A DNA stretch of 64,000 nucleotides from Candidatus Omnitrophota bacterium (GTDB lineage: Bacteria > Omnitrophota > Gorgyraeia > B26-G9): the NCBI GenBank assembly GCA_043805415.1, contig JAZDHZ010000043.1, positions 5,844-69,843 on the forward strand, in the 5' to 3' direction. The notes below the pieces were generated by a model that made no database searches, was not told the DNA's origin, and saw nothing but the letters and a program-made list of their open reading frames with translations. Positions 4,436-17,375 of this stretch are shown here, one piece after another (position 1 is the first letter of the stretch; the number at the start of each line of letters is the position of its first letter). Made by a program: the position numbers and the translations under genes.

Positions 4436-5515
4436 ATGAAACTTTTCAGCAAATTTAATTTAGGAAAACTGGAATTAAAAAACCGTATTGTCATGTCTCC
4501 GATGACCCGCTCCAGAGCCACGGCTGAGCATATACCTAATGAGCTGATGGTTGAATACTATAAACAAAGAGCCAGTGCCGGACTGATAATTACCGAAGGC
4601 ACTGCGCCTTCAGCTAATGGCACGGGTTATCCGCGGATTCCGGGAATTTATAATCCAGCCCAAATCCAAGGCTGGAAGAAAATTACCGATGCCGTGCATG
4701 CTAAACAAGGGAAAATGTTTTTACAGATGATGCATACCGGACGGGTTTCCCATCCTGAGAATATGCCCGCAGGCGCAAAGATTATCGCTCCATCGGCAAT
4801 TGGCCTAAATGGGCAGATTTATACTGATTCCAAAGGCTTGCAGAATTTTCCTGTACCGCGGGAAATGAGTATAGCGGATATTGAACAAGCGCAAAATGAA
4901 TTTGTCCAGGCAGCCAAGAACGCGATTAAGGCGGGTTTTGACGGAGTAGAAATCCATGGAGCCAATGGATATCTGATTGATCAATTTATTAATCCGGCAG
5001 CAAATCAGCGCAACGATAACTATGGAAACACTGTGGAAAACCGCTGCAGGTTTGCCATAGAAGTTGCCCAGAAAGTAGTCAAAGCCATTGGACAGGAAAA
5101 AACCGGCATGCGGCTTTCTCCTTATGGGGTATTCAATGATATGAGTATCTTTGATCAGATTGAACAGACTTATAAATATCTTGCTGATGCCCTGGGCAAA
5201 ATAAAATTAGTTTATATTCATCTGGTAGACCATTCTTCAATGGGATCACCGCAAGTACCTGAAGCTATTGTATCCAATATTCGTAAATTTTTTAAGGGTA
5301 ACATTATTGCTAGCGGAGGATTGGATAAAGAAAAAGCCGAAGCCATATTAAAAGCAGATAAAGCTGATTTAACGGCATTTGGCAGGGCTTTTCTGGCTAA
5401 TCCGGACTTAGTATATAAAATGCAAAATGATGTAGCTTTAAATAATCCTGATTATGATACATTCTATACCCCAGGTGAAAAAGGTTATACTGATTATCCT
5501 ATTTCAGCTAAATAA
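4436..5515 (+). CDS. Old Yellow Enzyme family NADH:flavin oxidoreductase (alkene reductase, NemA-like)
   Basis: NRIVMSPMTRSRA N-terminal OYE signature, HGANGYLIDQF active-site region, TIM-barrel length 359 aa. Confidence 0.8.
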   Translation: MKLFSKFNLGKLELKNRIVMSPMTRSRATAEHIPNELMVEYYKQRASAGLIITEGTAPSANGTGYPRIPGIYNPAQIQGWKKITDAVHAKQGKMFLQMMHTGRVSHPENMPAGAKIIAPSAIGLNGQIYTDSKGLQNFPVPREMSIADIEQAQNEFVQAAKNAIKAGFDGVEIHGANGYLIDQFINPAANQRNDNYGNTVENRCRFAIEVAQKVVKAIGQEKTGMRLSPYGVFNDMSIFDQIEQTYKYLADALGKIKLVYIHLVDHSSMGSPQVPEAIVSNIRKFFKGNIIASGGLDKEKAEAILKADKADLTAFGRAFLANPDLVYKMQNDVALNNPDYDTFYTPGEKGYTDYPISAK

Positions 5516-6078
5516 ATTTATCAAAAAAATAGATGATTTATTTTTTCGGCTTAAGTATAAAGACATCCGTATCTTATCTAATTAAAACAATCGCCTCTTT
5601 TTAAAAACATTATTTACCCAGCAAAACTTTTAAAAATCATGCTTAATTTGGCAAAATCATAATTATGTGATATAATTTAACTAAGATAAGAGTTTATAAA
5701 AGAATGAAATATGTGTTGAGGAAGAGGAAGGTAATTATTTAGTATTTTATATTTATAATAATTATTCTTAAATAACGCAATTGTTTAAACTTATACACCT
5801 GCCTCCTTACTCCTCAAAGTTTTTGGGAAATTGCATTTTTGTATTATGCTTAATTTTTCTAAACCTAAGCAAAGTGCAAGTCTTCGAAAAAAAGCGTTTA
5901 AAGAAATATCCGAAAAGGCAAACCTGTCGAAAGGCAGGGGCATTCTAGTGGAATAACTATAATCGTTAATTCGCTAGAATCCCTTAAAAGGTTTTTTAAG
6001 GGGCAAAGCTATGGATCTAAAGCATATGTGATGATCGCCTGGCTGACCGATAACGAGTTAACCTATATGCCAAGATTG

Positions 6079-6114
6079 CCAAGCTGCCGAATTATTAGCA
6101 GATTGGCTTTTTTT
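6079..6114 (+). terminator. orphan intrinsic terminator-like hairpin (ccaagctgc ... gcagattgg + T7)
   Basis: 9-bp stem with one mismatch followed by TTTTTTT; nearest upstream CDS ends 560 bp away, so it may end an unannotated small transcript. Confidence 0.35.
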
Positions 6115-6204: not shown

Positions 6205-9200
6205 ATGGATAAGCGAGCGCAATTAATTAAAATATGTTTAATTCTATATTGTCTTGAAGTTTTTATTCCGAATAGTATTTTTGCCCAACAATTGCCTGAG
6301 CAAACAGAGGCACAGACCGCTATTATTGAGGAATCATTCACTGATGGAAATGTGGAAACTCTGACCATTGCAGCTGACCCAGACACAATTCATTTGGAAT
6401 CAATGCTTTCTTCAGAGCAATTAGCGGAAACTTATGCGTATGCCTTTGACCTGCTTAATGACCAAGGCGCTGAGGATATAATTACTGCTTATCTTGAAAA
6501 TGGCTATAGTTTATCAGCTATTGGAGAAATCCTTAAAAATGCCAGCTTTTCTTTAGAAGATACTTTTAAGGCAATGGTTAATCATTTAGGGGAAGATTCC
6601 CTTGGGGAAATTATCGGAGCTCTGCTGGAAGCTAAATTTAAATCAGGGGATGTATTTAAAGTCGCGATAAATCACTTAAAGCAGGTAAGTCCTGAGCTTA
6701 CTGATAATCAAATTATTGAAAAAGTTTTGGGAACATCCGTAGATCCGGCTAATTTAAAAAGCTTGATGCAGGAGATTTTTATTGAAAAAATTTCCTCAGT
6801 AAGCGATCCGATTAAGTGCGATTTAGTTATAGCTATGATTGATTCGGGATTTAGCTTAAATGAAATAACTAGCGCATTAACTGAAAATGGTTTTAGTATT
6901 GATCAAATTGCTCAAATTTATAGTTTAGGCAGCATTGATATTGGTTTAACTTATGATCTATTGCTAAATACGCCGGGTTCGCAGGAAACGGATGTGATCA
7001 GAGCTTTACTTGCTTCATCTTACACTAAATCAGAAGTATTTGAGTGTATAGTCAATAAACTTTCTGGAACTAAAAGTGTTGAACAAATTGTGTCAACTAT
7101 CATGGGGCAGATTGATGTTGGCGGCCCAAGCGATGAACAATTAAACAATGCTATTGTTCTGTCTGGAGTATTACATGCTGGAGGAATAAGTATTTCTGAA
7201 ATAAGCGGAGCTTTTCTTTCCGCGGGATTTAATTTAGACAATGTTGTGGCTGTGCTTAACGGGATTGGAACTGCTCTGGATGATGCTTTTGCAACTTTGC
7301 TAGGCGCTAATGGCGGACAGAGTATTGCTGATGTGGCAGCAGCTTTAATCAGTAATGGATTTGATGTGCATGCTGTTTTCGCGCTAAGCACTGCAGAATT
7401 TAAAAACCAGGGAGTCGGCTTAACTCAGGTTGTCCAGGCACTTATTGGAACCATTGATCCTGAGAAAGGGCCGACTAAAAACCAGACAGATAATTCGCGG
7501 TTATTAGTAGATGTGTTGCTTAACGCAGATGACTCTTTACAGAACATAGCTGAAGCTTTTATTGCCAATGATTTTGGTTTGGAGAATACGGCTAAATTAT
7601 TTAAAAGCAATGGTGTATCAGCAGTGGATACTTATAATGCTTTAGTTGGGGCTACGGAAGGTGAATACGCGAGCGTAGCAGTGGCAATGACTACTATTGG
7701 TTTTACTGGCAGCATTGTTATTGAGCTTGCGGTAACAGATCTTAAGGCTCATGAATTCAGTAACGCGGATATTATGTCAATGCTAATTGGAACTGTAGAA
7801 GAAGGTAAAATTCCTACTAACCCTCAGATAACTATAGCGGGTTGCTTAACAAAAATTTTAATTGATCAGGGCGTTGCTTTGCCGGAAATCGGAGAAAATC
7901 TTATTAGCCAAGGCTTTAATTTAAATTATACAGCTAAAATATTTAAAAAAGCTGATGTTGATATCACTGAGGCATTTTCGGTTATGATTAAATTGGACGC
8001 CGAGGCAGGCTTTGATGTTGTATGCGCAGATTTGAAAGCCGCCGGCTACAGGGCCGCGGATATATTTAAAGAAGCGGTAACTGCCCTGCAGGAGCAAGGG
8101 CATGGTGTCAGTGAAATTATAAATATTTTAATCACTGCGGTTGATTCTGGAAAAAATGCTACAGGCGCGCAAATTAATAATGCTGGCGACTTGGTAAAGT
8201 ATTTAATTTCCGGGGGCAGCGCATCACAGGAAATTTGCGAAGGGCTCTTGGCTATTAATTTTTCTTTATCTGACATCGCGAAGGTAATGCGAAAAACAAG
8301 CGTAGAACTTGATGTTGTTTTTGCGGAAATCCTTGCTCTGGGTGGCGGGCAGGACATTGGTTTGGTTTCTGAGGCGCTTATTGCCGGAAGCTATGATCGT
8401 AATAGTGTTTTTCAAATAGCAATAGGAGAATTAAAAGCTCAAGATTACAGTACAGCCGCGATTATAAATACGCTAATCGGCGTGGTTGATCCCGAAGAAG
8501 GACAATCCGTTTATCAGAAAACTAATGCCCCATACTTGCTGCTGAGTTTATCTTTGGATGGGGGAAATTTAGAAGAAATCTGCGGCGGTTTTCTTAGTGC
8601 TGGTTTTAGTTTAGACGAAATAGCGTCAGCAACAAAAAAAGTCAACATTGATCTTATCCAAACCTATTCCGCGTTATTAAACGCGAATGGCGGTCAAGAT
8701 TCTGAAGCTGTGATTAACGCGCTTAATAATGCCGGATATGAAATATCGACCTTGTTCGAATTAATTGTTCCAGAGCTTCAGGGTAAGGATTACAGTACAG
8801 CGCAGATAATAACTTTCTTAATCGGCAATGTTAATCCAGTATCTGGACTTTCCGCTAAACAATTAGAAAGAGCGCATATTCTGGTTTATGTTCTAAGCGA
8901 AACAGGGGAATCTATAGAAAATATTTCCACAGCTATGGCTACTGCTGGATTTAAAGTCGAAGACAATGCGAAAATACTTTATCGGAAAATTGGAGATGCT
9001 GCTGAAGCCTACAATCTATTAACTAGTACTTACGGCCAAGAAAGTGTCACTACCATAGCTTTAGGAATGATTAATGCTGGATATGATATAGAATCTGTGC
9101 TCAATATAATTATTCCTATTTTCGAAGATCAAGAACTTTCCATGCCGGATATTATTAGCACAATTATCGGAGTAATCGCTTCAGAAAATAAGCCGACCTC

Positions 9201-11427
9201 TTTGCAGCTGAAACTGGCGGCAAAACTTACGGATATATTTACTGCTAAGGGAAATACTATTGAGGAAATTGCTCAGTGTTTATTTACTGTGGGAATTGGG
9301 CTGGATAATGTAGCGGTTATATTAAAAGCAAAAAGTACTGAGTTTGATAGTGCCTATAGCATTTTAACTAATCTTACCCAAGGGCAAAAACTTATGGATG
9401 TCGCATTTGCATTGATAAACAGCGGATTTGATAATGAAACAGTTGTCAGCACAGTTGTCGATGAACTTAAAATTCAGGGCAAGACTAATGCCGAAATTAT
9501 AAATCTTTTTATCGGAACTGTTGATCTTAAGAGCGGATTAACTGATACGCAGAAACAATGCGCATTGTCTTTAATAAAAAAATTGCGTGCTGAAGAAGGA
9601 GTATCCTTGTCAAGCATTTGCAATGACTTGGGCTCCACGGGATTAACTTTAGAAAAAATCCTTCCGCTTATGAAATCCGCGGAAATTAGTACAGAAGATA
9701 CTTTTAACGCGCTTTTAAGTTTTGACAAAGGACAAGATCCAGTGGAATTGGCAAATGTTTTAATGACTAATAATTATACGCATAAAGAAGTTTTTGAAGC
9801 ACTGGTAAATTATTTAGAGGGACTTGGTTCGGAATATAGTGTTAATAAGATAATTGAGATGGTAATCGGGGATATTGATGCTGAGAACGGATTAAGCGGG
9901 ATACAGCTGGGATACGCGCGTGATCTTGCTAATGCTTTTTTAGCAAATGATACTTCTTTAGAAGTCATTGCCACAGGATTTTTAAATCATGGGGTCACGC
10001 TTACAAATACCGTAATTATTTTAAAACTGGCTGAAGCGGAAGCAGAAGAAACTTACACGGCCCTGATGTCCGCATATGTGCCTAAGGAAGATGAAGTAGC
10101 GATTAGAGAGATAACATCAAAAATGATCAGCGCTGGGTACAGCTCTTTTACTGTTTATGCTTTTGCCGTTAAAAAGCTTGCTGATCAAGGGATCACTAAT
10201 GAAGTTGAAATAGTAGATATATTAATTGGACCGGTTAATTCCGAGGATTCCCAGCAACTTCGCAATGCCGGGAAACTATCGATGGTTATTAATTATAATA
10301 AAGCGATATTAACTGCCCAGAACACTGAGGAATCGTTTATTGTTTTATTTAAACAAGGATTTACCATAGAACAGATTACCCAGATGTTGAATGAAGGAGG
10401 AGTTAGCGACGAGCAAGTAAACGCGACCTTTTTGCAGGGATTTAGTGATATTGTTAAAGAATTAGTCAAATCAGGAATGAGCCCGGAGAGCATTGTTAAG
10501 TTACTTATTAATAAGGATAACAAACTAGATTATGTCCGGCCGCTTGCCGAACAGTTAAGACGCAATGATTTTGCCTCAACGGAAGTGCGCAGCGCTTTTT
10601 ATTCCATGCCTGGAGGCATGTACTCTTCGGATTGGGATCTTATCAGTAATGGTTTAGCAGATGCGGATGATTACCGGATTGAAAATACGCAAGAAGCTCA
10701 GACGATTAATTCGATGCTTAATGAAGGTCAGACTTTAACCGAGATTAGTCAGCATTTCGCGGAACAAGGATATCAGATGTCCTTTATCGGAAAACTGTTT
10801 AAAACTCTCGGACAATCAATTGAAGAAATATTTAATGCTTTGGATAATACTAAAACTTTTTATAGTGATGATCTTCTGGTTAATGATACTGCCGCTTCAA
10901 TTGTATTGCTAAAATATTATTCACACAAGGATGTTTTTACTTGCGCAACCCAATATTATAAGGAAAGGAACGTGAATTCTGAGGGGATTATTTTAAAGCT
11001 GATGAGTTCAGCGATTAAAGTTGATTCAACCAACGTTATCGCGGATACAATTGTAGGAGAGTATTACGCGTCTAAAGCCGATATTCAGACACAGTCTTTT
11101 GTAACTCTTATGGATGCTGGATATTCGGTTATTTGGATAAAAGACGCATTATTGAAAAAGAATTTTACTGCCGAAGCCATTGAAGCATTTATCCAAAATG
11201 GTGACAACTTTAAAGCGATATACCAGGGATTATCTGCCCAGGGATTTAGCGCCAGCAATATTGTTAAGCGTTTTGAAGTTGCGGAAAGCCCGGGAGAATA
11301 TACCGTACTCCTGGCTGAAAATATGATTAAAGATGGTCTCAGTGAAACGGAAGTAACCAGCATTCTTTTAAGTTATAAGGCTGATCCTGATTTAATAAAA
11401 CAAGGCATTGCCAGAGGATTAGCTTGA
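6205..11427 (+). CDS. giant secreted repeat protein (1740 aa), about 10 tandem ~140-aa alpha-helical modules
   Basis: N-terminal signal peptide (LIKICLILYCLEVFIPNSIFAQQ); recurring motifs GFSL(D/N)EI, NGGQDS..V(I/A)..AL...GY, ELK.QDYSTA.II..LIG.VDP..G repeated through the protein; uninterrupted 5.2-kb ORF with RBS gggggcaaaaaATG. Confidence 0.7.
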   Translation: MDKRAQLIKICLILYCLEVFIPNSIFAQQLPEQTEAQTAIIEESFTDGNVETLTIAADPDTIHLESMLSSEQLAETYAYAFDLLNDQGAEDIITAYLENGYSLSAIGEILKNASFSLEDTFKAMVNHLGEDSLGEIIGALLEAKFKSGDVFKVAINHLKQVSPELTDNQIIEKVLGTSVDPANLKSLMQEIFIEKISSVSDPIKCDLVIAMIDSGFSLNEITSALTENGFSIDQIAQIYSLGSIDIGLTYDLLLNTPGSQETDVIRALLASSYTKSEVFECIVNKLSGTKSVEQIVSTIMGQIDVGGPSDEQLNNAIVLSGVLHAGGISISEISGAFLSAGFNLDNVVAVLNGIGTALDDAFATLLGANGGQSIADVAAALISNGFDVHAVFALSTAEFKNQGVGLTQVVQALIGTIDPEKGPTKNQTDNSRLLVDVLLNADDSLQNIAEAFIANDFGLENTAKLFKSNGVSAVDTYNALVGATEGEYASVAVAMTTIGFTGSIVIELAVTDLKAHEFSNADIMSMLIGTVEEGKIPTNPQITIAGCLTKILIDQGVALPEIGENLISQGFNLNYTAKIFKKADVDITEAFSVMIKLDAEAGFDVVCADLKAAGYRAADIFKEAVTALQEQGHGVSEIINILITAVDSGKNATGAQINNAGDLVKYLISGGSASQEICEGLLAINFSLSDIAKVMRKTSVELDVVFAEILALGGGQDIGLVSEALIAGSYDRNSVFQIAIGELKAQDYSTAAIINTLIGVVDPEEGQSVYQKTNAPYLLLSLSLDGGNLEEICGGFLSAGFSLDEIASATKKVNIDLIQTYSALLNANGGQDSEAVINALNNAGYEISTLFELIVPELQGKDYSTAQIITFLIGNVNPVSGLSAKQLERAHILVYVLSETGESIENISTAMATAGFKVEDNAKILYRKIGDAAEAYNLLTSTYGQESVTTIALGMINAGYDIESVLNIIIPIFEDQELSMPDIISTIIGVIASENKPTSLQLKLAAKLTDIFTAKGNTIEEIAQCLFTVGIGLDNVAVILKAKSTEFDSAYSILTNLTQGQKLMDVAFALINSGFDNETVVSTVVDELKIQGKTNAEIINLFIGTVDLKSGLTDTQKQCALSLIKKLRAEEGVSLSSICNDLGSTGLTLEKILPLMKSAEISTEDTFNALLSFDKGQDPVELANVLMTNNYTHKEVFEALVNYLEGLGSEYSVNKIIEMVIGDIDAENGLSGIQLGYARDLANAFLANDTSLEVIATGFLNHGVTLTNTVIILKLAEAEAEETYTALMSAYVPKEDEVAIREITSKMISAGYSSFTVYAFAVKKLADQGITNEVEIVDILIGPVNSEDSQQLRNAGKLSMVINYNKAILTAQNTEESFIVLFKQGFTIEQITQMLNEGGVSDEQVNATFLQGFSDIVKELVKSGMSPESIVKLLINKDNKLDYVRPLAEQLRRNDFASTEVRSAFYSMPGGMYSSDWDLISNGLADADDYRIENTQEAQTINSMLNEGQTLTEISQHFAEQGYQMSFIGKLFKTLGQSIEEIFNALDNTKTFYSDDLLVNDTAASIVLLKYYSHKDVFTCATQYYKERNVNSEGIILKLMSSAIKVDSTNVIADTIVGEYYASKADIQTQSFVTLMDAGYSVIWIKDALLKKNFTAEAIEAFIQNGDNFKAIYQGLSAQGFSASNIVKRFEVAESPGEYTVLLAENMIKDGLSETEVTSILLSYKADPDLIKQGIARGLA

Positions 11428-11610
11428 TCAGAGACTAAACTGATTATTTAGCAATAAATCTATAGTGTATAAACAAAAATAAAAAAAGGAGCATTTTTTA
11501 ATGACTCCTTTTTTTATTGCTTTATCTAATAATTAAAACTGGATTTACTGAACAACAGATTGACAGCTATTTAGACACCTCAAAAAAAATCACTCTTAAA
11601 CATTAAAATG

Positions 11611-11639
11611 TTGAAATTGATAAATATTTTACATATAAT
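11611..11639 (+). promoter_or_regulatory. sigma70-like promoter for tRNA-Ala (TTGAAA - 17 bp - TATAAT)
   Basis: Consensus-like hexamers 17 nt upstream of mature tRNA 5-prime end. Confidence 0.4.
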
Positions 11640-11655
11640 GAGTTAGAAACTTATC

Positions 11656-11731
11656 GGGGCAGTGGCTCAGCTGGGAGAGCACCACGTTCGCAACGTGGGG
11701 GTCGTGAGTTCGAATCTCATCTGCTCCACCA
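11656..11731 (+). tRNA. tRNA-Ala (anticodon CGC)
   Basis: Cloverleaf folds by eye: 7-bp acceptor stem with G3:U70 Ala identity pair, anticodon loop TTCGCAA, T-loop GTTCGAATC, encoded CCA. Confidence 0.85.
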
Positions 11732-11737
11732 TATAAA

Positions 11738-11769
11738 AGAGGCTATTTTTACAATAGTCTCTTTTTTTT
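11738..11769 (+). terminator. rho-independent terminator after tRNA-Ala
   Basis: agaggctatt / aatagtctct stem (one mismatch) followed by T8. Confidence 0.5.
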
Positions 11770-12022
11770 ACGTCGATAAAGCAAGAAAAAGCTCACGGAT
11801 GCTCTACTAAAATAAGAACTTCTCAATTACTACCAATTTATATCAATTATGCTGTATTTTGCTGGATTATAGTCATTATTTAGTCACTAGTCACCAGTAT
11901 GTATGATGCTCAGGAAGCTTAATTATTAGGCTATTTAATTTTTACTCAGGTATATATGGCGAATCAGCTAAAAACAGGGTATACTTAATTGTTTTTAATA
12001 AACCAATATAAAATAGAATGAT

Positions 12023-12793
12023 ATGTCTAAAAAAATTATACTTACATTAATAAATTCAGTTCTAATTCTATTGCTATTTGGCATCTATGCGTTTGCTAAA
12101 AATCAAATTGTTTTAGATGTTTTATCTCCAAAGCTTAATTTAGAAAAAATCTCTTTTGAAAAATATATGTTAAAAGACCGAGTAAAACTGCTTGCCACTT
12201 TAAAGGTTTACACTCAGGAGATTGAGAATCCTTACCAAGTCTTAGGGAGGGTCACGCATCGAATTATGATGAATGATGAGAACTTAATAATCAGGGAACA
12301 AGTTAAAAAGGACGGAATGACAAGAGAAGTACATAATTCTTTATTACGGATCCTAGATGATGGGACTGAGCAGTTATTAGGACAATGTTGGTATAAGATT
12401 AATAGAAACGACGCGATTTTAGCTGGAGATGCTTCTAATATGCGTCTGCCAGCTTTTAAGATCAAGGAAGAAGGAAAGGGCTATGGTACTGTTCTTTTTG
12501 CCGCAGTATTAGAAAGTGCCAGAAATTATGATGTAACATCCTTTACTGTAAACATTGCGCTAACTTCAATATATGAACGTTTTGGATTTAGAGAGGTGGA
12601 ATATGGAATCCTTGATGAATTATATAGAATAATAAACCCAGAAGATCCCTCTTTTTTTAATACTGCAATTGATTTAGCGAAAGAACGGGGTATTACAGTG
12701 AGTTTTACCCTTCAAGAACTACCTTTCTCAGAAAAACCAGTTTTTGCACGATCAATTATCGGACTAGAAAAACCCTTCGCTCAATCAATTTAA
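12023..12793 (+). CDS. membrane-anchored protein with C-terminal GNAT-like acetyltransferase fold
   Basis: N-terminal TM helix; C-terminal EGKGYGTVL...YERFGFREVE resembles GNAT motif A/B; located between tRNA-Ala and tRNA-fragment repeats. Confidence 0.45.
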   Translation: MSKKIILTLINSVLILLLFGIYAFAKNQIVLDVLSPKLNLEKISFEKYMLKDRVKLLATLKVYTQEIENPYQVLGRVTHRIMMNDENLIIREQVKKDGMTREVHNSLLRILDDGTEQLLGQCWYKINRNDAILAGDASNMRLPAFKIKEEGKGYGTVLFAAVLESARNYDVTSFTVNIALTSIYERFGFREVEYGILDELYRIINPEDPSFFNTAIDLAKERGITVSFTLQELPFSEKPVFARSIIGLEKPFAQSI

Positions 12794-13028
12794 TCATCCA
12801 GACATTGCCGCTGTTAAAATACTATCTATTATACTGCCACTAGTTAACAAAAAAATGTTAATTAATATTTTTTAACGAAAAATAAACAAATTTTTCCCTT
12901 AGCTGATATCAAAATCAAGGAAAACAGTTCCTGGGATATCCAGGTCTATAATAAAAAATTGTTTAAAAAAGTCCTATTTGAAAGTTCTTTGGGTTTGGGT
13001 GAATCATATTTTCTTGCCGGAATTCATT

Positions 13029-13062
13029 GCGGGAGGGACGTGAATTTGAATCCAATCTGATC
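13029..13062 (+). repeat. degenerate copy of tRNA-Ala 3-prime half (T-arm + acceptor), putative att remnant
   Basis: gggagggacgtgaatttgaatccaatctgatc aligns base-for-base with gtgggggtcgtgagttcgaatctcatctgctcc of the intact tRNA-Ala at 11698-11730. Confidence 0.5.
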
Positions 13063-13107
13063 TATTCTGGAAATTAATTTTAAAAACAAAAATTGAATAA
13101 TATGAAA

Positions 13108-13587
13108 TTAACTAGTTTTACTTTCTGCTTCTGATTCAAACGCGAAAAAATGATTAAGCAGGGCCTTATACCATTCATCCTGTAAATCATATTTTGCTAT
13201 TTTAATACTAAATTTCAATGTTTCTATAGCTACTTCCGCTTTAAATAACACTTCATTATTTTTATTAATTTCAACATACGGAGTTATTCCTTTGCCGCAG
13301 CCGTAGACAATAAAGTAGATGTCGTATTTACTCCGATATGAAAATTTATGCACTGTTTTATAACCACTATTAGTTTTTTCAGCCCAAACATCTTTTCGCT
13401 CAATAGTCCTATAACTCCAGTCCTTTTCCGCATTGCCTTTGCCAACAAAACCCTCGGCAGCATTTAATTCATCTTGTATGGTTTTTAGGACTCTATAAAT
13501 TTTTAACGCGATTGTACAATCCATTTCTAGCTTTTTTTCTAAATTCTTATCATCCTGCTGTCTTGAGTTTAAATTTTCATCTGGCAT
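13108..13587 (-). CDS. hypothetical protein (159 aa), only minus-strand gene in this stretch
   Basis: ORF track; bracketed by the two tRNA-Ala fragment repeats; no recognisable family. Confidence 0.4.
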   Translation of the reverse strand: MPDENLNSRQQDDKNLEKKLEMDCTIALKIYRVLKTIQDELNAAEGFVGKGNAEKDWSYRTIERKDVWAEKTNSGYKTVHKFSYRSKYDIYFIVYGCGKGITPYVEINKNNEVLFKAEVAIETLKFSIKIAKYDLQDEWYKALLNHFFAFESEAESKTS

Positions 13588-13940
13588 ATAACACCCTTTA
13601 ATTAGTAAAACAATAATTAGATTTAATTAATATATGATACACGAATTAATCCTGTCAATCTAAAGCTATATAGAATCTTCAATTAGGCAAACAAAAACCA
13701 TAGCAATCAGAAAACTTACCTGCCTAATATCCCTTTTTTTATTGACAACTGATAGTAAATATTAGCTGTGACCAAATAAGAAAAGTTTTTATTTAATAAT
13801 AGGCATTATTTAAACACTATCTGCAAAAACCCAATCCTAACAAAATAATTGAAGTTTTATAACTAGAATCATATTATATTTGTACCTGGATAAAAAATCA
13901 ACACTTTTTATTGACGGATTCCATTCGCGAGGTGGGGGCG

Positions 13941-13984
13941 CGCGGGTCGAATCCGATCTGCTCGATTATCAGGAAATTAATTAA
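13941..13984 (+). repeat. second degenerate tRNA-Ala fragment (anticodon arm through acceptor 3-prime strand), putative att remnant
   Basis: ccattcgcgaggtgggggcgcgcgggtcgaatccgatctgctcg parallels cacgttcgcaacgtgggggtcgtgagttcgaatctcatctgctcc; followed by aggaaattaatt shared with fragment 1. Confidence 0.5.
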
Positions 13985-14245
13985 AAATACAAATCAAATG
14001 ATTTTTTTTATAAAACTTTTGAATGCTTTTGCGTTTAGGTATACAATATTAATGTCAGATGAAGCTGATCCTGAATCTGAAGAAAATAAAGCAGTGAAGA
14101 ATCGGTTAAAGGCAAATAGAATAATAAAAATTAATTAAAAATTTCATGAAGCCAGTCGAGATAAATGATCTTAATGGTTTTAATCAGTTTCTGTTGAGTT
14201 CTGTCCATCCGGCAGACGCGTTTAGAAATACCCTCAATAGTTTAT

Positions 14246-14687
14246 TTGATATTTCTAATCAGCAAAAGGAGGCAAGTAATGGCTAAAAAAACAATCAGAA
14301 TATCCCAGCTGGAGGAGCATAGTGATGAGCGGGGTGTTAGCTTTTCCGTTCCCGCGGCGAATCTAAGTTATATTAAGAAAATCAATAATATGCATTTTGC
14401 CACGATTATGCCCGGGGCTGTTCGCGGCAATCATTATCATGAACAAAAGAAAGAATGTCTTTTGGTCATATATTCTGATGCTTGGATTTTTAGTTATCAG
14501 GAAAAAAAAAGCAAAGCAGCCGATGTTTAAACATTTTGAAGGTCAATCAGGAGTTGTGATTGAGGTTGATCCGGGGGTAGCGCATGGGCTTAAAAATACA
14601 GGCACTAAACCGCTGATTGTCGGGGTATTTTCCAATAAAGCAAATGATCTGAATAATCCTGACAATATTAGTAAAATCGTGGTATAA
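14246..14687 (+). pseudogene. cupin-fold protein (sugar ketoisomerase/WxcM-like?) interrupted by +1 frameshift in an A9 tract
   Basis: Two overlapping ORFs (14246-14530 and 14397-14687); cupin motifs RGNHYHEQKKE (frame 1) and GVAHGLKNTGTKPLIV (frame 2) join across aaaaaaaaa at 14502-14510. Confidence 0.5.
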
Positions 14688-14696
14688 TATTTTGAA

Positions 14697-15383
14697 ATGA
14701 AAAACTTTATTTTAAATAATCTAATCATATTGTTTATCCAAATTCTTTTTGTCACCGCGGTGTACGCGGAAGTCGGTATCGGCAGTACCCGGCAAGAGGT
14801 TATCAGTGCTTTTGGTGAGCCTTCGGGAATAATGACTAGCGGCCAGGAAGAAATTCTCAGCTATCCGGGCGGGATGATTGTGATCTTTGACGGCAAAGTT
14901 AGTAATATGGATAAGGATTTTGGCAAACGTTTAGAATCGCGTAAAGAAGAAACAGAATTCAGCGCTCAGCAGCAGGAAAAAGGATTAGTTGAGCACTTAG
15001 GCCAATGGGTAACACCCGCGGAAAAACAAAAAGCGGAAAGTCGAAAAAACCTTAGCCAGCAGATAATGATTTTTTCCAATGGCGGCGCGGAAATAACTGT
15101 TGATCAGATTCTTGTGCCAGGTAAAATAACCTTGCTTGATTTTTATGCTGATTGGTGCGCGCCTTGCAAACAACTCTCGCCTTATCTTGAAAAGCTGGCG
15201 AATAGTGATAAAGATGTTTATCTGCGTAAAGTTAATATTGTTAAATGGGGAACTCCGGTAACTAAACAATTTTCTATAAACAGTGTTCCTGATGTGCGGG
15301 TATTTGACCGCTATGGCCGCATGGTCGGCAGACCAACATATGATTTTAATGAAATTCTATCCTATGTAAAACGCTCCAAATAA
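14697..15383 (+). CDS. secreted thioredoxin-fold protein
   Basis: N-terminal signal peptide; WCAPCK CxxC active site inside thioredoxin-like segment DFYADWCAPCKQL. Confidence 0.7.
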   Translation: MKNFILNNLIILFIQILFVTAVYAEVGIGSTRQEVISAFGEPSGIMTSGQEEILSYPGGMIVIFDGKVSNMDKDFGKRLESRKEETEFSAQQQEKGLVEHLGQWVTPAEKQKAESRKNLSQQIMIFSNGGAEITVDQILVPGKITLLDFYADWCAPCKQLSPYLEKLANSDKDVYLRKVNIVKWGTPVTKQFSINSVPDVRVFDRYGRMVGRPTYDFNEILSYVKRSK

Positions 15384-15577
15384 TAGTGTTCTTAAATCCC
15401 ACAATCTCAAACCTTGCGAATAAACCATTTAAAAAAATACTGGATTAAGCATTAAAACCCTAAAGCTTTGACTATTTCAGCAGTCTAATAAGCATGGCCA
15501 AATTAAGCTTAGAATGCTTAAGAAATAGTAAACAGGGGAAAGCCTAAATAATTTTGGCTTTTGTTCAGCATATTTTA

Positions 15578-15606
15578 TTGACAAGAACTATATTATCAGG
15601 TATAGT
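15578..15606 (+). promoter_or_regulatory. sigma70-like promoter (TTGACA - 17 bp - TATAGT) upstream of antiporter gene
   Basis: Hexamers read directly; followed by a 2x20-nt tandem repeat (cattatgagttagtatgagt) at 15621-15660 in the leader. Confidence 0.4.
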
Positions 15607-15722
15607 TTATGGCAAATAGCCATTATGAGTTAGTATGAGTCATTATGAGTTAGTATAAGATATGATAATCAAGTAAATATTAAGTCAAAATCTAATAAGT
15701 CAGGATTGGAGTTTAAATATAA

Positions 15723-17375
15723 ATGAATATAAATATGCTTTTATTAACCGGAATATCTATATTTTTAGGGACTTTTGGCGGTAAGTTATTTCAAAAATTC
15801 AAAATCCCTCAGGTTGTTGGCTATATAGTAGTCGGGGTTATAATGGGCCAATCAGTTTTAGGCATATTAGATGCCAAGACTATTGAAATGTTTACTCCCT
15901 TAATAAATATAGCCTTAGGGATTATCGGCTTTAGAATCGGGGCTGAATTAAAAGCCGAAGTTTTTAAGAAATACGGCCGTTCGATTTACATGATTTTGTT
16001 TGGGGAAGGGATATTAGCCTTTATTGTGGTTGCGGTATTAGTTACCTTGGTCACAAAAAAGCTGTATTTAGGACTGCTTTTAGGGGCAATTGCCTCAGCA
16101 ACCGCGCCGGCTGCTACTACTGATGTGCTTTGGGAATATAAAGCAAGAGGGCCTTTGACCACAACCCTGTTCGCGATTGTTGCCTTAGACGATGCTTTGG
16201 CACTGATCATCTACGGATTTGCCAGCGTTTTTGCCAAATCAATGCTAGCGCATGCTGATTTCTCTTTTTTTCAAAGCGTGCTAATCCCAATTTTTGATTT
16301 AATTAAATCCTGTCTGATCGGCGCTGGTTGCGGATTCGCGCTTTCCGCACTTTTGCGTCGGATTAAAGATAAAGAACTGATGTTTTCTTTTTCACTTGCC
16401 TTTATTATCTTTACTGTAGGCTTGGCGATATTTTTTCAGCTTGATTTTATATTATCCGCAATGACCTTAGGCGCGGTGTTTGCTAATATCTCTCCCCAGA
16501 TCAGCCGAAAAGTATTTGATACTATTGAATCTTTTAGCCCTCCGATATATGTGATCTTTTTTATTCTTGTTGGCGCGCGTTTGCAAGCCAAGTTATTTCT
16601 AAACGCAAGTATCGCTTTATTGGCAATTGTGTATTTAATCGGCAGAACTTCAGGTAAAATGGCCGGCGCTTATTTGGGCGGTTTTTTTTCCAAAGCACAC
16701 AAGATGGTAACTAAATATTTAGGTTTATGCCTTTTTTCTCAAGCCGGGGTAGCTATTGGTTTAGCAATGGTGGTTTATCACAATTTCAGTTTATTAGGCC
16801 CGGAAGGAGAAAAGGTCGGATTGCTTGTCTTGAATATAATCACGGCCACTACTTTTGTGGTGCAGTTAGTTGGTCCAGCTTGCGTTAAGTTTGCCATAAC
16901 CAAGGCGGATGAAGTCTGGCGCAATGTAAATGAAGAGGATGTAATCGAATCCAGTACTGTCAGTGATTTTATGCGCAAAGATTTTACATTTGTAAAAGAA
17001 AATGCCAGCTTAGACAAGATAATGCGAGCAATTAAAGAAAGAGAGTCATATCACTTTCCGGTGGTTGATAATCAAGGAGAATTAACCGGATTAATATCTT
17101 TGGGAAATTTAAGAAATATATTTGGAGAAGAACAGCTGGGTAATGTTATTTTAGCCAGGGATTTGGCTGAACCTGTACGAAAAGTGCTTTATCCTAACCA
17201 GCCGTTAAAAGAAGCCTTTGAAATCTTTCAAAAAAGAGAAATCGAGTATTTGCCGGTGGTGAAAAATGAAAACTCTAAGGAGATTGTGGGAATAGTCGAA
17301 TACCAGGGATTGGTTGATACGGTAAATCGAAAAACTTTGGAACGCCAAGAAAGTTTGGATAAAAAACATAGCTAA
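15723..17375 (+). CDS. cation:proton antiporter (CPA family) with C-terminal CBS domain pair
   Basis: About 12 predicted TM helices in first 400 aa; C-terminal tandem CBS-like segments (VSDFMRKDF...ISLGNLRN; ILARDLAEP...). Confidence 0.7.
   Translation: MNINMLLLTGISIFLGTFGGKLFQKFKIPQVVGYIVVGVIMGQSVLGILDAKTIEMFTPLINIALGIIGFRIGAELKAEVFKKYGRSIYMILFGEGILAFIVVAVLVTLVTKKLYLGLLLGAIASATAPAATTDVLWEYKARGPLTTTLFAIVALDDALALIIYGFASVFAKSMLAHADFSFFQSVLIPIFDLIKSCLIGAGCGFALSALLRRIKDKELMFSFSLAFIIFTVGLAIFFQLDFILSAMTLGAVFANISPQISRKVFDTIESFSPPIYVIFFILVGARLQAKLFLNASIALLAIVYLIGRTSGKMAGAYLGGFFSKAHKMVTKYLGLCLFSQAGVAIGLAMVVYHNFSLLGPEGEKVGLLVLNIITATTFVVQLVGPACVKFAITKADEVWRNVNEEDVIESSTVSDFMRKDFTFVKENASLDKIMRAIKERESYHFPVVDNQGELTGLISLGNLRNIFGEEQLGNVILARDLAEPVRKVLYPNQPLKEAFEIFQKREIEYLPVVKNENSKEIVGIVEYQGLVDTVNRKTLERQESLDKKHS

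Follow-up and report, generated by a model that had tools for sequence, protein, structure and literature searches.

A c-di-GMP-I riboswitch candidate upstream of the gene for a predicted exported alpha-helical repeat protein in Candidatus Omnitrophota

The c-di-GMP-I riboswitch Bc2 of Bacillus thuringiensis, which senses cyclic dimeric guanosine monophosphate (c-di-GMP), was shown experimentally to be an ON switch for the collagen adhesion protein Cap (PMC4933901), and in Clostridioides difficile both adhesin and pilus genes are under c-di-GMP riboswitches (PMC6200980). Large open reading frames (ORFs) of the Omnitrophota have been proposed to code for adhesins (PMC10066038); c-di-GMP and riboswitches are unmentioned in the texts of PMC10066038 and 10.64898/2026.06.07.730766. 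Here we analyzed a stretch of 64,000 nucleotides (nt) from a Candidatus Omnitrophota bacterium, called the window below, in which one large ORF encodes a protein of 1740 amino acids (aa) built from helical modules and is preceded by a predicted c-di-GMP-I riboswitch. The reading we favor, with a probability of roughly 0.5, is that the locus codes for a riboswitch-gated (ON) exported alpha-solenoid that would act in the attached state as a scaffold or adhesin.

The leader of the repeat-protein gene

The Rfam covariance model RF01051 (c-di-GMP-I, or GEMM-I, riboswitch aptamer) matched positions 5907-6091 of the window with 41.6 bits against a gathering score of 35 (E 9.6e-5), and the aptamer ends 113 nt 5′ of the start codon of the repeat-protein gene. 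It carries insertions of 75 nt on the P1 side (5925-6000) and of 40 nt in the P2 loop (6026-6066). By eye, it follows the consensus at AAAGGCAAACC, GCAAAGC and GCUGCCGAA; the nucleotides that contact c-di-GMP are, in Vc2 numbering, G20, A47 and C92. The aptamer core GCAAAGCYRYGGRTCTAAAGC was found in 10 loci, and the P2 helix and junction (GCAAAGC...CUAAAG) were maintained in all leaders, with 9-10 of the 10 P2 positions paired and a compensatory change from U-A to C-G. The ligand would be c-di-GMP, judging from these sequence features.

Related proteins and the loci that encode them are designated below by P and L numbers. Aptamers at or above the gathering score (35.4-43.2 bits) were found 5′ of the orthologues in L004/L005, L001, L007/L009/L011, L002 and L013, and the L006 leader scored 33.4 bits (E 1e-4). 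The L014 leader (7831-7951) reached 57 bits as the c-di-GMP-I-GGC clan variant RF03167 (gathering score 59), which was better than its match to RF01051; its junction nucleotides looked by eye to be of the parent type. Overall, the aptamer is kept upstream of the gene in eight of ten orthologue lineages, at protein identities of 29-59%. Since the gene neighborhoods differ between these lineages, the riboswitch travels with the gene. Higher scores came from the aptamers directly 5′ of the remote relatives in L015 (72.4 bits) and L016 (84.7 bits). The P1-side insertion of about 60-75 nt, which holds two hairpins, is a lineage-specific trait of the main-family aptamers and is missing from L014 (7831-7951), L015 (4180-4302) and L016 (5752-5834). 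The 40-nt P2-loop insertion is likewise carried by the main-family aptamers, and the L016 aptamer is without both; the L013 aptamer occupies 447-612. The switch has been lost in two orthologue lineages: in L003 (200-528) and L010 (upstream of 10001) the 5′ half of the aptamer alone is left, with AT-rich sequence behind it, and L012 (9440-10000) has no aptamer, yet a PilZ gene lies downstream of its repeat-protein gene.

The aptamer is followed by an intrinsic terminator that constitutes the expression platform (6078-6114, GCCAAGCTGC...GCAGATTGGC and then a T7 run), whose 5′ arm CCAAGCTGC overlaps the P2 3′ strand GATTGCCAAGCT (6074-6085). Across 8 leaders the terminator stem was 94.4% paired, with 3 compensatory pairs, versus 20-41% in slid controls. 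An A-to-G change in the shared strand was compensated twice, once in the P2 5′ strand and once in the terminator 3′ arm, so that three elements (the P2 5′ strand, the P2 3′ strand and the terminator 3′ arm) covary. In five of six distinct leaders the minimum-free-energy fold contained the terminator and not P2, and enforcing P2, which cost +1.4 to +8.6 kcal/mol, abolished the terminator. The terminator overlap, the covariation and the mutually exclusive folds indicate that the expression platform is coupled to the aptamer. Riboswitch regulation of the repeat-protein gene is well supported.

In the mechanism that we propose, the leader would fold into the terminator at low c-di-GMP, using the P2 3′ strand as 5′ arm, and transcription would halt before the ORF. 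At high c-di-GMP, the ligand-bound aptamer would hold the P2 3′ strand, the terminator would be blocked and the 5.2-kb ORF would be transcribed. We consider such an ON switch probable. Its direction has to be weighed carefully because the leaders of the main family and of L013-L015 contain two copies of the aptamer 3′ strand, and this duplication, which may represent an unusual expression-platform design, leaves some room for an OFF logic. In the window, copy A (GATCGCCTGGCTGACCGATAACGA, 6033-6056) lies within the P2-loop insertion as a near-duplicate, and copy B (6074-6093) includes the P2 3′ strand and overlaps the terminator 5′ arm. In an OFF switch, c-di-GMP would lock the aptamer with copy A and leave copy B free for the terminator, and the protein would be made at low c-di-GMP, in a motile, dispersing or free-living state. 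Copy A is nearly invariant across leaders, is transcribed ahead of copy B and can form 8-10 of 10 pairs with the P2 5′ strand (6007-6017); in L013 the covariance-model search took it as the aptamer strand, and pairing of copy B with the P2 5′ strand would be a classical antiterminator. However, copy B is closer to the Rfam consensus, was picked by cmscan in most leaders despite the penalty for a 40-nt insertion, and covaries with the P2 5′ strand (9-10 of 10 positions paired in each leader), whereas copy A is mismatched at the covarying position in 4 lineages. Besides, the aptamer formed with copy A plus the terminator is already the lowest-energy ligand-free state, so the ligand would have nothing to switch. 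The compact L016 leader has one 3′ strand only, and the ON logic is clean there because this strand overlaps the terminator. For the better fit and covariation of copy B and the single strand of L016 we kept the ON model, and an OFF switch seems quite unlikely. Copy A resembles a Vc2-type ending (...ACCGAU...), and its candidate roles include those of a decoy, an alternative aptamer and a tertiary element.

The remaining elements suggest that the riboswitch and the gene form a monocistronic unit on the + strand. A strong sigma-70-like promoter (TTGGCA-17-TATAAT with a TG extension, 11 of 12 consensus matches, a consensus match only) is located at 5648-5676 and is where the leader transcript likely begins, the ORF occupies 6205-11427 including the stop codon, and a terminator hairpin (-18.2 kcal/mol, z-score -5.7) follows at 11478-11518. 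The next gene, tRNA-Ala(CGC) at 11656-11731, was correctly named in the original prediction and has its own promoter and terminator. The presence of a terminator behind the repeat-protein gene and of separate signals for the tRNA gene is the basis for predicting a unit composed of promoter, c-di-GMP-I riboswitch/terminator, gene and terminator. The G+C content of the window is 35-42%, and the composition of the ORF is the same as that of its surroundings. The single 5.2-kb frame of 1740 aa anticipated from the nucleotide sequence was confirmed. No fewer than 10 independent assemblies carry it unbroken (1732-1915 aa), so the splitting by frameshifts that had been named as a refutation was not seen. 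An identical protein, annotated as hypothetical, has been deposited from a Candidatus Omnitrophota metagenome-assembled genome (MAG).

The module array, its predicted fold and its export

Comparison of the whole protein with itself by BLAST returned the identity match only. When aa 820-960 were used as query against the protein, ten matches were obtained with a period of about 115 aa (range 113-118) and starts at 249, 362, 476, 591, 706, 820, 938, 1051 and 1166. A hidden Markov model (HMM) of the module, built from the copies matched by this single-module query, identified nine strong copies at aa 250-1283 (6952-10053), each scoring 118-136 bits, as well as two full-length but divergent ones at aa 121-248 and about 1284-1405. 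Module 1 is delimited at aa 121-249 (6565-6951), diverges from the module consensus and yet is the best-conserved region among orthologues, with a mean pairwise identity of 0.62; module 11 (aa 1284-1405, 10054-10419) is divergent as well. Partial copies were found at aa 59-120 (6379-6564) and within the C-terminal 330 aa. The array therefore consists of eleven full modules, nine strong and two divergent, with degenerate helical copies at both ends. The original prediction had described about ten modules of 140 aa; the period is shorter and the count higher, and the example windows it gave were each about 1.2 modules long. The three-part motif it quoted holds, and its parts correspond to conserved parts of the module consensus, YxxLxxxxGGQxxxxVAxALIxxGYxxxxVxxxxVxxL...IIxxLIGxxDxxxGxT..Q...A..L...L...GxSLxxIxxxLxxxGFxLxxxAxxxK. 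A profile self-comparison pointed weakly (E 1.7e-4, probability 49%) to a possible duplication within the module of a 22-aa G-x-S-x-x-x-I-x-x-x-L-x-x-x-G-F/Y helix-turn-helix unit.

AlphaFold2 modeled three modules (aa 591-935) as all-alpha, with a predicted local distance difference test score (pLDDT) of 91.4 and a predicted template modeling score (pTM) of 0.81. The input was a 21-row alignment of non-overlapping orthologous and paralogous windows. Each modeled module has seven helices of 8-16 residues separated by turns of 3-4 residues at the G-F/Y positions. The C-terminal 574 aa, modeled from a seven-row alignment with a pLDDT of 87.4, contain 36 further short helices and no distinct domain. 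Within them, aa 1406-1740 (10420-11424) repeat the same short-helix motif and finish in a conserved end, ...SPGEYTVLLAENMI...GIxRGLA. Both models thus bore out the expectation of a helical protein.

Searches of Pfam, NCBIfam and PHROGs assigned the protein to no family (NCBIfam gave nothing and PHROGs nothing meaningful) and revealed no enzymatic or known domain, in agreement with the suggestion that enzymatic motifs are missing. Among the Pfam repeat profiles only PPR_3 (14.7 bits, cut-off 25) and PC_rep (13.1 bits, cut-off 21) appeared, both below cut-off, and there were zero Pfam matches at E <= 1 to TPR, HEAT, ARM, Sel1 or ankyrin. Pfam detected neither HemolysinCabind nor Ig-like domains and the models are all-alpha, which separates the protein from repeats-in-toxin (RTX) or LapA-like adhesins of the type I secretion system (T1SS). 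It had been proposed that the module belongs to no nameable repeat class, and this stands: the TPR, HEAT, ARM, Sel1, ankyrin, PPR and RTX profiles are unmatched, and a 115-aa seven-helix unit differs from helix pairs of 30-47 aa. The best structural matches in the PDB were helical repeats designed de novo, with RecX as a weak match; neither the RecX sequence profile nor a three-fold three-helix architecture was found. Foldseek placed designed helical repeat proteins at a template modeling (TM) score of about 0.2, and the sequence-profile search of the PDB recovered designed repeats only, at E >= 1e-3. As modeled, then, the protein is an alpha-solenoid in class and falls outside every described repeat family. 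The UPF0180 profile (PF03698) scored 29.1 on the whole sequence (cut-off 25.4) and no single stretch passes alone; most likely, the score is a summation over repeated helix-turn-helix-like motifs. Other Pfam matches to the protein and its relatives, among them MerR, RepB_primase_C, UBA_3, ACT and HTH_62, were rejected because no domain passes alone, and they were treated as summation over the generic helix-G(F/Y)-turn-helix motif.

The N-terminus consists of a basic n-region and the sole strongly hydrophobic segment of the protein, followed by a conserved small-residue site and QQLP. A Sec signal peptide is predicted at aa 1-27 (6205-6285), with cleavage between ...SIFA and QQLP, and the ...FA|QQLP junction is kept in homologues as A|Q(Q/N)LP, with distant relatives showing the same. 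The earlier call of a signal peptide agrees with the basic region, the hydrophobic segment and the conserved cleavage-type junction. The sequence thus makes export through the inner membrane likely; the signal peptide would be cleaved and the protein would reach a location beyond that membrane. The mature protein (about 184 kDa) has an isoelectric point (pI) of 4.3 and a net charge of -121, and the whole family is acidic, with net charges from -86 to -212 in homologues. Cys and Trp contents are very low; the 12 Cys, several of them at a semi-conserved (E/D)IC position, contradict the former statement that Cys is absent. No lipobox was apparent by eye, and no barrel or sorting and anchoring domain (LPXTG, PEP-CTERM, C-terminal domain of the type IX secretion system, autotransporter, SLH) was found.

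These properties bear on two alternatives. One remote relative is annotated as 'lambda repressor-like', and the protein could be taken for a cytoplasmic array of helix-turn-helix or UBA-like units that bind nucleic acids or proteins. The signal peptide is conserved, however, the negative charge throughout the family is incompatible with DNA binding, and none of the Pfam domains passes alone, which makes such an array scarcely credible. An S-layer or surface-coat protein would fit better with the signal peptide, the large size, the pI of 4.3, the very low Cys/Trp content and a hydrophobic-plus-acidic composition, all typical S-layer traits. Nonetheless, S-layer proteins are usually beta-rich and expressed at constitutively high levels rather than gated by a terminator riboswitch, Pfam found no SLH or other anchoring domain, and the family is rare, with 11 representatives at E <= 1e-30 among 1.84 billion. 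We regard the surface-coat interpretation as highly improbable.

The protein family, its gene neighborhoods and the proposed role

A word-indexed search returned only seven proteins (1732-1750 aa, 35-59% identity), and 98 proteins at E <= 1e-3 came out of an exhaustive profile search of the 1.84 billion cluster representatives. Two other full-length members, P0008 (38% identity) and P0009 (29% identity), also come from Omnitrophota MAGs. One locus, L009 (CAYTGV010000051.1), was deposited as an uncultured Planctomycetia bacterium, and its leader is identical to those of L007 and L011 over about 240 nt aligned; taxonomic mislabeling or mis-binning is possible, as all named relatives are Omnitrophota. 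The eleven-module layout was observed in every full-length member checked with the module HMM except P0010/P0104, and the total length stays at 1732-1773 aa down to 29% identity. Each module is most similar to the module at the same position in other homologues. From this positional orthology it follows that the array is older than these lineages and is being neither homogenized nor resized. The mean pairwise identity is higher at the ends (0.54-0.62 at aa 59-249 and 1484-1740) than in the central modules (0.40-0.44). Aside from this general pattern, neighboring modules at aa 756-1083 of P0009 are near-identical, a sign of recent amplification in a second distant lineage.

The constancy of the array speaks for a different role of the exported protein, that of a periplasmic or envelope strut, ruler or scaffold of fixed length, instead of an external adhesin. 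It would then serve envelope machinery, for example a type IV filament or a secretion apparatus. Eleven modules and 1732-1773 aa fixed to 29% identity would suit a ruler, as would a Sec signal with no outer-membrane secretion or anchoring signal. Genes for N_methyl pseudopilins and DUF7305 adjoin the L016 relative, and PilZ proteins often regulate envelope machines. On the other hand, the modules of P0010/P0104 (1915 aa; L014 8001-13748) are near-identical and recently amplified, so length is not strictly fixed; a rod of about 1700 helical-repeat residues would, as a rough estimate, probably be wider than the periplasm; and no conserved envelope-machine genes adjoin the main-family loci. A strut is unlikely. 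Positional orthology could also suggest a separate partner for each module, as expected if the protein were a secreted effector against a host or prey cell with the modules as a protein-binding platform, in the way of oomycete tandem WY/LWY helical effectors or of Legionella effectors with helical repeats. The Omnitrophota have been inferred to be host-dependent or predatory (PMC10066038). Against an effector, the matches are generic, at the level of helical repeats, no delivery system or toxin domain was found in Pfam or NCBIfam, and typical effectors differ from this strongly conserved family, which shows neither diversifying variation nor changes in copy number. This role appears very unlikely.

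The neighborhoods were then compared for genes that could point to a function. PilZ genes are located directly downstream in L001 (6103-7560), L007 (6219-7705), L013 (6251-7640) and L012 (15451-16137), and P0012 heads an operon in L015 that includes a PilZ gene (4889-5263). In one clade, PilZ is followed by a syntenic citrate synthase-YjbQ-LpoB block, which L014 has without PilZ; apart from PilZ and this block, no conserved gene partners were found. The remote subfamilies P0012 (L015) and P0020 (L016/L017) share a 110-115-aa module, the signal peptide and the acidity. Upstream of P0020 (L016/L017, 108-5539) there are genes for ComFB, ComFB-CheR, two N_methyl pseudopilins and DUF7305, in a cell-surface and cyclic dinucleotide (c-di-NMP) signaling neighborhood, ComFB being a described c-di-NMP receptor family (PMC12448109). 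Downstream (9208-10449 in L016/L017) there is a gene with weak matches to carbohydrate-binding module (CBM), BNR and beta-propeller-like families.

Several other relatives and neighbors were recorded. A small ORF for a hydrophobic, single-transmembrane-like peptide of 36-49 aa is found between the riboswitch and the large gene in the three lineages with two downstream PilZ genes (L001 about 595-735, L007 378-527, L013 736-846) and is absent from the window. In the P0025 subfamily (L018/L019), a pattern search found no GEMM core motif. There, a main-family-like signal peptide (…IPNLNA|QVSPEE) is on a separate 72-aa ORF (L018 759-977, L019 620-838) ahead of a main ORF of 1326 aa with a GTG start (L018 1033-5013, L019 894-4874). 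Two assemblies show this arrangement, which points to a split that is conserved, to a frameshift or to a start codon that was called wrongly. The C-terminal third of P0025 is not helical-repeat-like by eye, and a Fic/RhuM gene is present downstream. P0016, P0019, P0023 and P0028 belong to a separate repeat family (…ALWNSGY…LADLLWDEGA…IGQA…LGFSLETIADA…) that matches only a 35-aa sub-motif, and P0019 carries RTX calcium-binding repeats. L011 includes at 1574-1715 an ordinary flavin mononucleotide (FMN) riboswitch (94 bits) 5′ of riboflavin genes, and tRNA-Pro(CGG) is located 5′ of the riboswitch in L011 and L014.

The original prediction had placed the gene next to a tRNA integration hotspot with a decayed island and, from this position, had proposed a surface or host-interaction role. 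Direct support for the hotspot or island was not obtained: no att-like repeat of the tRNA 3′ end was detected in 11600-16000, and no integrase was seen. The tRNA-Ala gene is syntenic downstream of the orthologues in L003 (6822-6897), L010 (16300-16375) and L004 (15242-15314), so its adjacency is conserved synteny with no island features and the argument built on it is weak. The surface role itself is plausible for other reasons, namely the c-di-GMP-I riboswitch conserved upstream and the PilZ, ComFB and pseudopilin neighbors. The ORFs beyond tRNA-Ala in the window (11732-15700) are orphans or weakly GNAT-like and do not code for PilZ; the corresponding positions hold a PIN gene in L003 and a PMT_2/TPR gene in L004. 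The G+C content falls to 31.7% at 12-14 kb of the window, and three tandem copies of AG(C/T)(C/T)A(T/G)TATG with a 10-nt offset are found at 15618-15657, just 5′ of a Na+/H+ exchanger gene.

According to the model we favor, the protein made at high c-di-GMP would leave through Sec by means of its cleavable signal peptide. The mature form would be an acidic all-alpha solenoid of eleven positionally conserved modules with better-conserved helical ends. Beyond the cytoplasm, in the attached state with high c-di-GMP, it would serve as an elongated scaffold or adhesin with no enzymatic function; its conserved ends may provide specific binding or anchoring, and the module array may be a spacer or an interaction surface. 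c-di-GMP usually governs bacterial attachment. This, the riboswitch-adhesin precedents (PMC4933901, PMC6200980), the PilZ, ComFB and pseudopilin neighbors and the adhesin proposals for Omnitrophota (PMC10066038) are the reasons for assigning such a role.

Several observations weigh against this model. A Sec signal alone, in a diderm, means delivery to the periplasm only, and an adhesin domain, a cell-surface anchor and an outer-membrane secretion signal are absent from the Pfam and NCBIfam results. Known c-di-GMP-controlled adhesins are beta-rich, whereas an alpha-solenoid is predicted here. Paralogous modules were mixed in the alignment behind the AlphaFold2 model, and the overall shape of the protein, rod or superhelix, is an extrapolation from the model. 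The main-family aptamers score just 33-43 bits, which is due to their insertions; their 3′ strand is duplicated; and an intact aptamer is missing in two lineages (L003/L010 and L012). A bolder extension of the scaffold or adhesin model can be advanced only tentatively, as possible rather than probable: the module might represent a new class of natural, 'designed-looking' alpha-solenoid rods that are a recurrent c-di-GMP-I output in uncultured lineages (the main family and at least two remote subfamilies, with PilZ, ComFB and pseudopilin genes nearby), and in the ultra-small Omnitrophota it could form a c-di-GMP-induced extracellular tether or attachment organelle to host or substrate.

Comparison with known systems

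Host attachment is widely suspected for the large exported proteins of Omnitrophota, in which hardly any domains are annotated and for which no regulation is known, and a conserved riboswitch offers a testable regulatory handle on one of them. The repeat protein resembles the large and giant Omnitrophota ORFs described before (PMC10066038; bioRxiv 10.1101/2023.11.21.568195; 10.64898/2026.06.07.730766) in its phylum, in being exported or membrane-associated, repetitive and poorly annotated. In contrast to the giant ones, it is far smaller and belongs to a distinct all-alpha family. It also shares with the giant adhesins LapA, FrhA and CraA (PMC6890996) the character of a large repetitive exported protein whose surface presence would follow c-di-GMP. 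Those adhesins leave through a T1SS, contain RTX and Ig-like beta repeats and are controlled post-translationally by LapD/LapG, whereas the Omnitrophota protein has no RTX/T1SS signal by Pfam and is predicted to have a Sec signal, all-alpha repeats and transcriptional control by a riboswitch.

At the level of the fold, HEAT, ARM, TPR, Sel1 and PPR proteins and the designed helical repeats 5cwb and 8cwy are built from helix pairs of 30-45 aa, and the unit here is a 115-aa seven-helix super-repeat with no Pfam repeat profile match. RecX (3c1d, 3dfg, 3e3v) has tandem three-helix repeats, three in number, but it regulates RecA in the cytoplasm and is small and basic, unlike a protein with about 100 helices, a signal peptide, a pI of 4.3 and no sequence relation to it by Pfam. 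A confidently modeled natural repeat fold with computationally designed proteins as its nearest solved neighbors is relevant to fold evolution and protein engineering.

A close parallel to the locus as a whole is found in the Bc2-cap and C. difficile systems, where the 5′ untranslated region of one large exported non-enzymatic protein contains a c-di-GMP aptamer of class I (or class II) and the terminator is read through when c-di-GMP is bound. The proteins of those systems are beta-rich, cell-wall-anchored adhesins of Gram-positive bacteria with known binding domains. The Omnitrophota protein is all-alpha as modeled, has no anchor and comes from a candidate phylum of the Planctomycetes-Verrucomicrobia-Chlamydiae (PVC) group, and its aptamer differs by large insertions and a duplicated 3′ strand. 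With it, an all-alpha solenoid family of a candidate phylum would join the outputs of c-di-GMP riboswitches, so far beta-rich adhesins and pili of Firmicutes and Proteobacteria. Exported structural proteins under riboswitch control are already known; the protein family and the variant of the fold are new.

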